From: Cetorhinus maximus
Taxonomy: Eukaryota
Direction of reading: 5' to 3'
NCBI RefSeq assembly: GCF_964194155.1
Contig: NC_135903.1
Coordinates: forward strand, 10,974,001-11,038,000
DNA: 64,000 nt
The notes under the pieces are model-generated. The model searched no databases. It saw only the letters and a list, made by a program, of their open reading frames with translations, and had not been told where the DNA came from. Positions 257 to 53,612 of the stretch are shown piece by piece. The position numbers and the translations under genes are program-made. The stretch's first letter is position 1, and every line of letters begins with the position of its first letter.

Positions 257-339
257 GTGGGTAAAATCATGAACGAAAGGAAGAGAAACAATTACAGGGC
301 AGTTGGAGCAGGAACACAGGCAAGCACTCTCATCTGCGG

Positions 340-470
340 CAAGGTGACTTTATTCAGGTCATAAAGGAGCCTTTTTGTCTCCAGCACAAAGATCCCTCAG
401 TACAAATTAATACCTTGAGTAATTTATAGGACAGGCCCCTTACGGCAGAGTAAATTACAAACACGTTTAA
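340..470. promoter_or_regulatory. Cluster of posterior-Hox/Cdx-type sites at the start of the HoxB10 intron
   Basis: TTTATT, GTCATAAA, AATTAAT, TAATTTATAG and GTAAATTAC within 130 bp of each other, just after the donor. Confidence 0.35.
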
Positions 471-948
471 GTGACCCTTTTAAAGATCAAAACAGCGGAA
501 GGTTCCTGTTCTGAAGGCCACTCCTTAGTTGCAGTAGAAATCGCTATAAAAGTCCCCAATATAAACAACTCACCTAGGCAAAAACAAATAAGCATTATCA
601 AACGCAAGGCATACTTAAGAAGGAAGCATAAAACTGCAGTTATATCAAGTACACATACAATTAAACTAGCGGTTATTTTACGACGGAAAACATTATGTAA
701 TTATATTCATTCATATAGCTTAGTGGTTTTATGAACATAAATATATAATCATGATTATGTGTAAATGTAATTATATGTAAACGTTCACAAAATTGCACAT
801 ATATCATATAATTATAATTCTGTTATATGGACATATCTATATGTTTATAGGTATATATAATTACACGTATACACAGAGGGAAACAGATTGAACTGATCGG
901 TTAATTAATAATCCTTGCCGTTAGTATGGTCTATCTTCACACAAACAG

Positions 949-975
949 CTGTGTATGTGTGTGTGTGTGTGTGTG
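949..975. repeat. (TG)n microsatellite
   Basis: Direct reading of the TG run. Confidence 0.9.
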
Positions 976-3621
976 GGTGGGTAACATTGCAACATAGCTA
1001 GTTTATGCAAGCATTCATAACAACATACGTTTATAAATGAAACCACAAGCCGTGCTCGGGTTTGAAGTTTCGATGCAAAGACTGCATTGGTGGCCAGCGA
1101 TATTTTAAATAAATAATTGTGGGTGTTGATATATTGGATTTGAGTCTGACATTCAGTGAGCAACAAAGCATTCGAGCGACAGTCTATCAATGATTGGTTC
1201 ATGTATTAAAACAAGCCAAAGATGCAATTATGAATTCCAAATGTTGAATATAAATAAATTGAGCTTCGTGGCACCATGTGATATCCACTTAAACTCTATT
1301 TGTTGCCATGGAGATAGATTATGGCACCTAAGAAAAATTACATCACACAGCGCTGCAGAGGCATTGCGGTAATATATGAAAACTCGCTGTTGAGTGAATT
1401 AGGAATTAAAGAACCACAGGGGCACCGACATGCACACTTGCAATCCGAGGTACTCCATTTGCTATTTCCTGGTAGGTGTGGATAATTCCGATTGCTGTGA
1501 TCTGATTCTAACAGAATCTACGAGAAATGACAATGAATATCAAAAAGGTTACTGGTAGCGCTTTGCCGATTCTTTCAGAAGTTAACTGTTGTCTGACAGG
1601 TAATTATTAAGCCACATTTCTGTATTTTCCGGGAAAACTTTTTAAAAAAGTAACTGTAGTTCCTAACCCCTCCACCACCCCCCCACCGCCCCCACCCCAC
1701 CAATGCTGAGCCGCTACACACGAGGAAAGACGTGGATAAACCTCAGGATGCAATAGCTCGGAGGAAGTTATAATTAACTTGGATCCACCAAAAAGGATTT
1801 CCTCCACCTACTCTCATACACATAAAATAATGAAACACAAGGCCACTTCATTTACATAAAAGTCGGCAAACACTTTGTAAAAGCGTTGCAATCCCTAACA
1901 GTTTAAGTACTAAGCATTAAGTAACAATGGGGCATACAAATGCCTTTATTGTTATGCAAATCTGGGACATGTTAAGCACACGTTAAACTTTGAAAATGAG
2001 GCAAAGTATTGTAAAGAGGCATAGGTGCCCCTTGCCCCATGGGATATATCCAGAGAGCACCTCAGAAGTTAAATTACCTCTCAATTAGGACGAGAGAATC
2101 ATGTGTTTCATTCTTGACACATCTTGAACTGTGTATGGACGCAACGATGGTATTTTTTGATAGCAATTGGACGAAATCAGCAGTGATCACCCAAATCACA
2201 GACTAGGTGATTCTGAATTAGTAAAATTTAGTTCAATCTGACAAATAAGCTTGGTTAGTGACTGTTAGGATTTACCGATGTATTTCCTCTGTAACTTTAG
2301 AGAATCTCCTGGTTTCTTTCTTATCAATTAGCTGATCTCTAAGGAAGCACTTAATCCTAGTCATATTTTAATTCCGTATAGTCCAATAAAATTGGGCAGT
2401 ACTTTTTAAAAACTATTTGTAACATTTCACCGCTGTGCTCCATTTATTGCACAGCTCAGTTGATATGTCCAGTTTCAGGGATTTATTTGACTTCCATGGA
2501 ATTTCCAATCTTGATTGATGACAAAAATCTTAGGAGAAAAGCTACACTCATCGACAACAACACTTCCGCCATCTTTGCTGCATTGAAATAACGTCAGCTT
2601 CACACAAAGAACCGAATGACGGCACAAAGTAGCTAATAAAGATGGAGGCCTTAAATTGAGTTGGGATTTTGGCTGTTTTAAAAATTGAACTTGTACGCAA
2701 CAAAGTGAAAGTTATTGCAAGTCACAGGTATCAGTTAATTTCCACACAATTTCTCTATACAGTACAACTTATTGTTACAAAATAATAAGGACAGTTATAA
2801 CATAAAACCCGATAGTAGAGTTCATACACATAACTAGTTGTGCAATAAGGCTTTACAGCATGCTCTTAACATCCTTCAATCAGTCAATAATTAGCAGGTC
2901 GCTTAAAATATAGTATACACTTACATTTTAAACTGAACTCCAGGTTATGTAGGATCGCATTTCTTGCTAAGCCCTTGCTGTTCCGGTCACTTCAGTCTTG
3001 TTGAGTAATTATCCGCATTTAAAATGCATTCAGGCCTATGTACTCACAAAACGCAGTTTCCATGTTCATCTAGGGAGCCACTCCAATAAGATATAGTATT
3101 TGAACAGAAAATGTAACACATGGTGCAACTTTCACCCACAGCATAAAAAACAACAAATTGACAACGCAACATTAGAAAAGAAAACTATCTGAAGGAGCCT
3201 AGGGTGATTTCAGACTGATTATCATATAGTTCCTTTCATTGTGGACCTTTTGAAACATTAGGTAGGCACATTTGAAAGGGAAATATAATAATTAAACCCC
3301 CTGTCTTTCACGTATTTTCCCCACAAACTATCAACCTGAAAAGTGTAGACAAATTCGCATTTATGCATTGCCACCGGATGGCCAAAACAAACACAAGGAA
3401 CTTCCCTAATATGCGGCTGGATCTTCAAAGGCCGGCCGTTAAAATTTGCGAATTGTTAGCTACAAGTTCTTGACTTTAAATAATATAAGAGGCAGAAAGG
3501 TACTGTACGAATGCGCTTATAACTAAGGAATTGTGACCTGACACTGAATATGGTAAACAAAATAACATCTTGAGTTCTAAACAAGAGCCTGGCCATGTAT
3601 AGACCAAAACCAACATCCGGC

Positions 3622-3826
3622 GGATGCTGAAAATCTAAAAGAAAAGCTGAAAATGCTGGAAATGCACAACAGGCCTTGCAGCATCTGTGGAGAGAGAGGG
3701 ATCCACTTAAGGTTTCAGGTCGTTCTGATGAAAGGTCACGATCTGAAACGTTAACTCTGTTTCTCCCTCTGCACAGATACTGCCAGACCTGCTGAGTTAT
3801 TTGCAACGTTTTCTGTTTTTATTTCA
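3622..3826. mobile_element. Fold-back (inverted-repeat) non-autonomous element, probably Penelope-like-derived, with central hammerhead-type motif
   Basis: Left arm ~3634-3722 is an imperfect reverse complement of right arm ~3739-3826. The centre reads CTGATGA-A-AGGTCACGATCT-GAAACGTT. It resembles an abundant shark repeat (from memory). Confidence 0.75.
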
Positions 3827-4021
3827 TTTATATGCTCTTTGAACTGTGATACTCAGATAGCCTTCTGAACCTGATTGAAATTTGGCCGGTAAGGAATTGT
3901 CCCCTGCACCATATACGCCGTTTCTTGCATGGGCCGAAAATTTTGACTATATCGGCCGCTTCTTTATGAGGTTATTAGTTTGGTAAGTTTACTTAGAGTA
4001 ACTGAATGCATAAACCTATAC

Positions 4022-4078
4022 AAAAACAGAAAATGCTGGAAAAACTCAGCAGTTCCAACAGCGCCTGTGGAGAGAAAC
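4022..4078 (+). mobile_element. Truncated second copy of the fold-back element arm
   Basis: AAAAACAGAAAATGCTGGAAAAACTCAGCAG...CTGTGGAGAGAAAC matches the left arm and the reverse complement of the right arm of 3622-3826. Confidence 0.75.
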
Positions 4079-4239
4079 CTATCTCCCCGCTGTTCCATGA
4101 ACTTAAACCCTTTCAATAAAGCCAAGAGCGTGTTCTATGTGAGGGTGTAACTTCCATCAACGAAATTACATCTAAAGTTTTCTGTCCTAAAAACCACCTA
4201 TTTAGTGGTTTACCGCACTTGCAACTGGGCTAACATTGG

Positions 4240-4287
4240 AACATGAAAAAATACAGCACCGACGGAGGTCATTCGGCCCACCATACC
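4240..4287 (-). mobile_element. 3' tail fragment of CR1-type LINE (HER1) or partner SINE (HE1)
   Basis: Minus strand reads TGGTGGGCCGAATGACCTCCGTCGGTGCTGTATTTTTCATG. This is close to the elasmobranch CR1/HE1 tail GGGCCGAATGGCCTCCTTCTGTGCTGT..TTCTATG (from memory). Confidence 0.5.
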
Positions 4288-5619
4288 GGGAAATGTTAAA
4301 GGTTAAATCCTAGTTTTATTGTAACTACAAGGATTTCAGAAAAAATACTTTTTAGTAGCAGAGGAGCTGAAGCAGTTTATGTTTTATCAATACGGACTGT
4401 GAACATGTTGAGAAACCCTACAATTGTATTTACAGTTTGGATACATTGACCTTTTTGGTCAGTAATGGCTCCTGGTTCTTACCATTTCAATTTATTACAA
4501 CGATATTGGATGCATGAATAACATTTGTCTCATATATAGCGAGGTTTACCTCAGAGATCGCGTTACATGTCTTTTTTTTAAAAAAAAACTACGTATAAGT
4601 CTAAAAGGTTATATGGAAACAGTTCAGCTTAAAGCATTTCGTCACAACGCTCACAATAGGATGGCAAATTGCAAAACATCGTATAAAAATGCGTTAACTA
4701 TTGCCTTAAAATTAACAATAATACAAAATGAAAAGCGTGGAGAAGCTTTATAAAAACTTTCATAACTTTCTGCTGAACACAACTGTCCCCATGTTTGTGT
4801 TTTCCTGCCCCCTGTTCGTCAAACGATTTCTCCTCCTCCCTTGCACAATCCATAACCTTTAAGTGAAAGTCCAGTATAAAGGCGAAATTATAGGGGTTAA
4901 ACGTTGTTTTGCAATACAACAATTCTGTTCTAAAACAATTCACAATAAGGCCGCTTGGACAAAATATTGACTTTGGGAAGTTAATAGGCGTTTGAATGGC
5001 CTGAGATATCCCAGGGAATAATTCCGTTTATCTTAACCTAGGTGAGCATTTTCTATCAGAAAATTAATATTATTAATTAGAATTTGAGATGCAGTTGTCT
5101 GTCATGGCCAAGCTATATTAACCGTGTTTTAAACGCAGTGATGTGTTTGCAATGAGGCTTTCGGGACAGCCATGTCTTTTTGTAATATTATCTGCCGTAC
5201 CTTATTCCATTGCTTTGCATCATTAGAAATCAATATTAGTGCAACCTGCATTAGAGATAACATTTTTGATCAAACCTTAATTAGGCCTTCACTGTAGTTA
5301 TTTGTCCATGTGTAGGAGTCCCCTTTAAGAAAAGCTGTTGGAACTTTTTATTTTGATAAGACATGAAGTTACATTAGAACAGGTAATGCTGCGTTGTGAA
5401 ACAACAGCCTGAGCTAATGAAAATCAGGATAAAACATGAAGGGTTCACATTCATCTTTCTGACTATGTGCCGACAATGTTACCCCCTCCCCGCTCTCAAT
5501 TGGGATACTTTATTGCAATCCCTGAGCCATGGTCTCGTTGGTGGTGAAAGAAAGGGAGGAAGAACAAAATCCATTTTATTCTGCAGGTCGTTTGACAATT
5601 TGTTTTTCCCGATTGACAG

Positions 5620-5891
5620 AGAGTACAAAGGCTGAGAATACGATAAACTGGCTGTCGGCGAAGGGCGGAAGGAAGAAACGCTGCCCGTACACCAAGCAAC
5701 AGACACTGGAGCTAGAAAAGGAATTCCTCTTTAACATGTATTTAACTCGAGAGCGCCGCCTAGAGATCAGCCGGAACGTGAATCTAACCGACAGACAAGT
5801 CAAAATCTGGTTTCAAAACCGAAGAATGAAACTGAAAAAGATGAGCAGAGAGCACAGAGTTCGAGAAATATCGGCTACTTTCCCCATTTGA
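5620..5891 (+). CDS. HOXB10: HoxB10 exon 2 (AbdB-class PG10 homeodomain)
   Basis: Acceptor ttgacag| at 5619. Encodes [70 protein letters not shown], which has PG10 signatures. Lies upstream of mir-196 and HoxB9. Confidence 0.92.
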
Positions 5892-9304: not shown

Positions 9305-9388
9305 AACTGCTGTGTGACTTAGGTAGTTTCATGTTGTTGGGCTTCTGTTTGATCGCAGTGACAAGAAACTGCCTGAATTACTCCAGTT
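9305..9388 (+). ncRNA. MIR196A1: pre-mir-196 (HoxB copy, mir-196a-1 orthologue); mature 5p 9320-9341
   Basis: Exact mature TAGGTAGTTTCATGTTGTTGGG. The 3' arm GCAGTGACAAGAAACTGCCTGA is complementary, with basal pairing AACTG/CAGTT. Canonical position between Hox10 and Hox9. Confidence 0.97.
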
Positions 9389-53521: not shown

Positions 53522-53612
53522 TGTCTGTCCTCTATATATACCCTGTAGATCCGAATTTGTGTTGACAAAGTTGTGGTCACAAATTCGTATCTAGGGGAGT
53601 ATGTAGTCGACA
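53522..53612 (+). ncRNA. MIR10A: pre-mir-10a; mature 5p 53539-53561, star ~53580-53601
   Basis: Exact TACCCTGTAGATCCGAATTTGTG and complementary arm CAAATTCGTATCTAGGGGAGTA. Located upstream of Hox4. Confidence 0.98.

Follow-up and report, generated by a model that had tools for sequence, protein, structure and literature searches.

Does an intron of a Hox gene of Cetorhinus maximus carry a self-cleaving RNA, or is the hammerhead-like motif that it contains the remnant of a retroelement? The first-pass annotation of this locus had recognized a minimal hammerhead ribozyme and had raised the possibility of self-cleavage inside a Hox pre-mRNA. We favor, with a probability of about 0.88, the reading that the motif is a minimal hammerhead ribozyme (min-HHR) in the pLTR of an abundant Penelope-like element (PLE) with RT and GIY-YIG, that it arrived by an old, likely 5'-truncated inverted insertion, and that its predicted state in the HoxB10 pre-mRNA is inactive.

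A minimal hammerhead motif on the sense strand of HoxB10

The window, i.e., the whole 64-kb stretch of DNA that was analyzed, contains seven homeoboxes, all on the + strand, and the gene order is 10, mir-196, 9, 8, 7, 6, 5, mir-10, 4. Paralogue identities were taken from homeodomain signatures, and with these the order 10-9-8-7-6-5-4 is compatible only with a HoxB cluster. Rfam located the mir-196 precursor at 9311-9384 and the mir-10 precursor at 53532-53607, each at the position expected for HoxB. The exon 1 ORF of the Hox10 gene starts at -467, within the upstream stretch (L061), and ends at about 256, and the homeobox exon begins at 5620. A donor (AG/GT, 256/257) and an acceptor (5619/5620), both predicted by hand reading, preserve the frame and define a phase 1 intron of 5,363 nt (257..5619, + strand). 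The hammerhead motif is on the sense strand of this intron, as annotated, since the exon 1 ORF and the homeobox exon are both on the + strand.

We then read the motif (3722..3755, + strand) base by base and found every letter and coordinate as annotated. It is composed of GTT (3722-3724), CTGATGA (3725-3731), A (3732), AGGT-CACG-ATCT (3733-3744), GAAA (3745-3748), CG (3749-3750), TT (3751-3752), and AAC (3753-3755), and the cut is predicted after 3752 if the RNA folds as a dimer. The core elements CUGANGA, GAAA, and UH are present in type I order, and all the catalytic letters are intact. Stem I indeed has only 3 bp, stem II has 4 bp including one G-U, and helix III is missing, with a palindromic AACGUU at 3747-3752. 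The CG of the palindrome is the majority in both subfamilies of the repeat family described below, and A3732, the extra base expected of a min-HHR, is an A in 30/30 and 28/29 rows of two classes.

A descriptor requiring CUGANGA, an optional extra base, at least 4 pairs in stem II, GAAA, UH, and at least 3 pairs in stem I matched a single site on both strands of the window, at 3725, with 0.03 expected by chance (100 first-order Markov simulations). The proposed type I topology, with AACGUU replacing stem III, is upheld. The annotation had also suggested searches with hammerhead models, and these were silent: at gathering score, the only Rfam families in the window were mir-196 and mir-10, and a relaxed threshold of E ≤ 10 gave no hammerhead within 3500-4200. 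We did not count this result as a refutation, because a motif devoid of helix III need not fit the Rfam hammerhead models.

The motif is part of an abundant Penelope-like element

A genome search with 3724-3825 yielded 1,662 candidates, and the 40 that were scored showed 85 to 93% identity to the sense arm of the HoxB10-intron insertion. A GIY-YIG-like ORF piece was found upstream of the repeat in 1 of the 30 loci fetched by repeat similarity. The DNA of that piece alone was then used as a query (7,146 candidates, 40 scored, 30 fetched), and the hammerhead repeat was located downstream, on the same strand, in 28/30 of the resulting loci, or in 27/29 once the query's own locus was left out. The Penelope origin is borne out by the refuting conditions that the annotation had set: the repeat is homologous to the ends of RT/GIY-YIG elements, and the core is retained as the majority sequence of the family. 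Most of the loci picked by GIY-YIG bear a sister form of the motif; in the subfamily of the window's own motif, GIY-YIG is directly upstream in 3/28 copies (L024, L023, and L009).

Analysis of the loci L031 to L060 revealed broken ORF pieces with RT motifs, a CX4CX2C linker (in L032, L033, L046, L059, and others), and a GIY-YIG region. These pieces support, in family copies, an RT with a C-terminal GIY-YIG as a single ORF. Pfam matched RVT_1 (E = 9e-5) and GIY-YIG (E = 0.011) on the ORF pieces, both under the curated cut-offs, which counts against our reading, and found no match on the first GIY-YIG fragment. The succession of RT, a CX2-5CxxC linker, and GIY-YIG is given as the definition of Neptune/Nematis PLEs in the available text of 10.1101/2021.04.23.441226, and the longer family copies resemble these elements by motif, not by tree. 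Metazoan PLEs are described as carrying min-HHRs in their pLTRs, with thousands of them in the genomes of fish, coelacanth, frog, and reptiles (Cervera and De la Pena 2014; PMC4209133, in the parts available). Judged by its sequence, the motif in the HoxB10 intron is the minimal hammerhead of a PLE pLTR and belongs to a known kind.

To estimate abundance, we drew a random sample from the 3.99-Gb genome at even intervals, comprising 59 stretches of 10 kb each (590 kb in total). A profile search found 53 family pieces, distributed over 30/59 stretches, which extrapolates to about 3.6e5 pieces genome-wide. The exact pattern of the window's subfamily had 116 matches in the genome, and its reversed control had 0. 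The core letters, all intact in the HoxB10-intron copy, were so in 9/39 alignable random copies only, and the full descriptor was passed by 1 site in the 59 random loci, two figures that count against our reading; extrapolation from this single match gives about 6,800 intact copies genome-wide.

We also evaluated base pairing over 35 rows, comprising 28/39 random copies, 6 copies selected by similarity, and the window copy; the other 11/39 random rows, truncated or badly anchored, were omitted from this count. The closing pair of stem II was G-C in 17 rows, A-U in 10, and G-U in 5. One stem I pair was unpaired in 12/35 rows; in the commonest subfamily, it is a C-A mismatch. Altogether, 85.7% of the helix cells were paired, with 12 both-side changes, and none of 500 shuffles scored as high, on rows that are related and represent about two events between subfamilies.

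Repeat-like sequence covers 293 of the 64,000 bases of the window (0.5%), versus a mean of 45% in the random stretches, in a comparison that detects only repeats represented in the 590-kb sample. All 293 bases are PLE pieces within the HoxB10 intron, and no other repeat piece was detected in the window, another point that counts against our reading. Gnathostome Hox clusters are reported to be under structural constraint and poor in repeats (10.1101/2025.06.08.657570, available text). Elsewhere in the intron, at positions 4225-4310, the summed contig depth was high in each of the four sequencing runs, which points to another short repeat missed by the random-sample comparison.

An old insertion of two head-to-head arms

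The insertion consists of two pLTR arms arranged head-to-head, an inverted (antisense) arm at 3605..3723 on the - strand (nhmmer match 3726-3605, E = 1e-21) adjoining a sense arm at 3722..3826 on the + strand (nhmmer match 3716-3843, E = 1e-32). The inverted arm is 5'-truncated inside stem II, lacks the CUGAUGA half-core, and differs from the subfamily majority in 21 of 128 columns. It also bears a 30-nt "tail" (3605..3634, - strand) that is absent from the sense arm. Divergence from the family majority is about 8% and 16% for the two arms. A third piece of this family, an antisense pLTR fragment that stands apart and is devoid of the hammerhead core, is located at 4014..4076 (- strand; nhmmer match, E = 7e-15). 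The window contains no RT or GIY-YIG sequence and no ORF remnant, and inspection by eye of 3571-3625 and 3816-3870 did not reveal a target-site duplication.

An adjacent inverted, 5'-truncated copy and a 30- to 40-bp tail on one end are features described for insertions of EN+ PLEs (10.1101/2021.04.23.441226, available text). The HoxB10-intron insertion is alike in its inverted truncated copy at the 5' end and its one-sided tail, but it is entirely ORF-less. Among 141 matches in 118 loci, we counted 12 head-to-head pairs, of which 6 were in random loci. In four head-to-head insertions both arms reach the hammerhead region (L076:6872-7134, L087:1970-2210, L104:538-715, and L110:3675-3884), and their junctions cluster immediately 5' of the core.

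Stem I is limited to 3 bp, as its fourth pair gave way to the inversion junction; intact family copies have 4 to 5 bp. The stem II changes of the HoxB10-intron copy with respect to the family are one G-U and a shorter loop; by eye, the G-U was seen in 7 and the short loop in 8 of the 100 exact matches listed, and both together in none.

A branch-point-like motif, a pyrimidine tract, and CAG lie in succession at 3751..3776 (+ strand) and could form a cryptic acceptor; the 3' half of the ribozyme overlaps the branch-point-like motif, and most of this stretch is predicted to be base-paired in the hairpin described below. Among random copies that include this site, the AG is present in 33/48 and the following ATG in 44/48; the family ATG reads ATA in the HoxB10-intron copy (window 3751-3779). 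The sense arm ends one base before a second acceptor-like AG at 3826.

We found the insertion at the same site in three organisms: A, the source of the window, and B and C, single contigs of which span the unique flank into the element. The background divergence is about 3.4% over 3200-4400 (1.2 kb) and is patchy. As the divergence of the arms is several times the distance between species, the insertion is much older than the species split, and most of its decay preceded the split. The differences from B and C were concentrated at 3348-3599 (18 listed for each), and almost none were seen at 3200-3347, a stretch that is possibly a conserved intronic element upstream of the insertion.

The core is predicted to be sequestered in a hairpin

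The two arms are predicted to form a long RNA hairpin (3667..3794, + strand), with 75% complementarity over 57 nt and a fold-back z score of -6.63. The first-pass annotation had suspected a competing fold-back and inactivity; the fold-back is confirmed, and inactivity is predicted. In this hairpin, GAAA (3745-3748) and C3749 are paired to bases of the inverted arm, with a predicted unpaired probability of 0.0 at 3745-3749. The predicted probability of the ribozyme fold decreases from 5e-3 in the bare 36-mer to 2e-8 with six more upstream bases, ∼1e-10 in the nascent RNA 3600-3760, and 2e-16 in 3600-3830, where the fold is about 22 kcal/mol uphill. With the same method, it is 7e-6 to 1.5e-4 for three solo family copies (5 to 7 kcal/mol uphill), and these values are meaningful as a comparison between the HoxB10-intron copy and solo copies, not as absolute values, for nearest-neighbor folding takes no account of tertiary contacts, proteins, or A-to-I editing.

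We then searched the 64-kb window for a second core that may serve as a dimer partner in cis and found none, the inverted arm and the 4014-4076 fragment being antisense and core-less. In a predicted cofold of two motif copies, the minimum-energy fold was not the dimeric hammerhead. The available text of PMC4209133 reports no cleavage by single min-HHRs and only low cleavage by dimers. An anole lizard PLE hammerhead is reported to cut only with the element's protein, and the lizard PLE hammerhead to be dispensable for insertion in vitro and to leave no matching read ends (PMC11167929, available text).

The copy in the HoxB10 intron is likely inert, because its stems I and II are weakened, its core is buried in the hairpin, and the window contains no second core. 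The earlier proposal of a self-cleaving RNA in a Hox pre-mRNA is unsupported: the motif belongs to a repeat with several hundred thousand pieces, this copy has lost stem I and II pairs, its sequestration is predicted to be complete, and a dimer partner in cis is missing.

We propose that two motif copies present in tandem on a transcript of the parent element would pair via the palindromic ACGU, rebuild helix III, and cut. In the HoxB10 intron, transcription would reach the inverted arm first, and this arm would anneal to the 3' half of the core once the latter is made; with no second core in the gene and with weakened stems I and II, the intron would be spliced normally. By masking both the ribozyme and the cryptic acceptor, the hairpin may explain why a sense-strand copy is tolerated in a repeat-free cluster.

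The strength of the hairpin, its retention in three species in a repeat-poor cluster, and the masking of the acceptor-like site are also what one would expect if the insertion had a host role, not as a ribozyme but as a double-stranded hairpin or DNA element (an editing substrate, or an element with a splicing or enhancer effect). We regard such a role as improbable, since a hairpin follows from the insertion mechanism itself, this one has decayed to 75% complementarity, and the same layout is found at random loci.

Conservation of the motif and co-option

In organism B, 1/72 nt differs across the motif region, and in organism C, 0/57 nt differs (three samples, whose contigs end at 3753). Compared to the background of about 3.4%, these values go in the direction of constraint, which counts against our reading, but the difference is not significant (P = 0.29 and 0.15, respectively, from two close relatives). 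Within the sense arm, changes are fewer in the first 44 nt (2/44) than in the next 61 (8/61), again without significance (Fisher P = 0.19). In an earlier comparison, these 44 nt seemed to match the family perfectly (0 differences; Fisher P = 0.02), a result that we rejected as biased, since resemblance to the HoxB10-intron copy had been the criterion for choosing the copies compared; the exact-pattern search shows two stem II changes in that stretch.

These signals bear on the idea that the insertion was co-opted. According to it, the sole surviving transposon family of the HoxB cluster would have been kept as a hairpin-gated hammerhead, the hairpin acting as a switch that hides the ribozyme until it is opened by a protein, by editing, or by pLTR RNA pairing in trans, and cleavage of the HoxB10 pre-mRNA would lower HoxB10 output. 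The core is intact on the sense strand, it belongs to the only repeat family detected in the cluster despite a repeat cover so far below that of random stretches, it is common to A, B, and C with hardly any difference across the motif, and the start of the sense arm has the fewer changes. We nonetheless consider co-option very unlikely. None of the conservation signals, across species or within the arm, is significant, and the unique flank is equally conserved in places (4/247 at 3799-4045 in B). The site was chosen for its intact core, and chance survival alone is expected to leave thousands of intact copies (the ∼6,800 extrapolated from one match). Lastly, the predicted barrier is about 22 kcal/mol, and there is no partner in cis.

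A chance match unrelated to ribozymes, with which the silence of the Rfam hammerhead models and the C-A mismatch in stem I of the commonest subfamily would agree, is largely refuted already and has a negligible probability, given the 0.03 sites expected, the location in PLE ends, which are described as carrying such motifs, and the alternation of G-C, A-U, and G-U at the closing pair of stem II.

Relationship to known hammerhead systems

We compared the HoxB10-intron motif, taken as a decayed PLE min-HHR, with published systems, as far as these are covered by the available parts of the sources. It is like the min-HHRs of PMC4209133 in its type I topology, the lack of helix III, the palindromic 15.2-16.2 pairs, the extra base between positions 9 and 10.1, and the short helix I, and the family is likewise present mostly as single dispersed copies with some inverted pairs. 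Three differences were noted. The pair 10.1-11.1 is A-U, both in this copy and in its subfamily, and not the usual G-C, which is described as highly conserved although not obligatory and is present in the sister subfamilies; helix II has 4 to 5 bp in the window's subfamily versus 7 to 8 bp; and helix I has 3 bp in the HoxB10-intron copy versus 4 to 5 bp. Sharks are not named in the available text of PMC4209133 or in the two supplements searched.

Non-LTR retrozymes (10.64898/2026.07.22.740005, available text) are alike in being noncoding and PLE derived and in having a type I hammerhead; they are reported from one chondrichthyan genome, and about 43% of the Xenopus copies are intronic. Active ones are tandem units with at least two complete hammerheads, whereas the HoxB10-intron insertion has one core and is inverted, not tandem. 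The amniote intronic hammerheads (in a RECK intron and others; PMC6155905, available text) share the intronic location and the retroelement-derived context, but they are full motifs with tertiary contacts and deep conservation, whereas the HoxB10-intron motif is minimal, multicopy, hairpin-locked, and without significant constraint. Our literature searches found no work joining hammerhead ribozyme, intron, Hox, and retroelement, and none on hammerhead ribozymes in shark Penelope elements, "shark" in one matching review designating a shape.

The insertion is most likely one more decayed copy of a described motif class among several hundred thousand pieces and, as such, matters little. It offers a modest example of the kind of insertion tolerated by a repeat-free Hox cluster and suggests the idea that inversion neutralizes sense-strand PLE ends in introns. 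Were the co-opted state real after all, it would amount to ribozyme control of a Hox transcript.

Some random copies of the family vary at core position 6. It is a C (CUGCCGA) in 5/39 copies, which form one closely knit subfamily (L089:6540-6584, - strand; L087:2056-2100, - strand; L087:2094-2138, + strand; L108:646-690, - strand; L075:3062-3106, + strand), and a U in L091, L073, L092, L083, and L087:8663. A natural A6C hammerhead variant is reported to favor Mn2+ (PMC7151607, available text). The position 6 variants may represent either a tolerated variant of the core or a sign that these PLEs spread without an active ribozyme.
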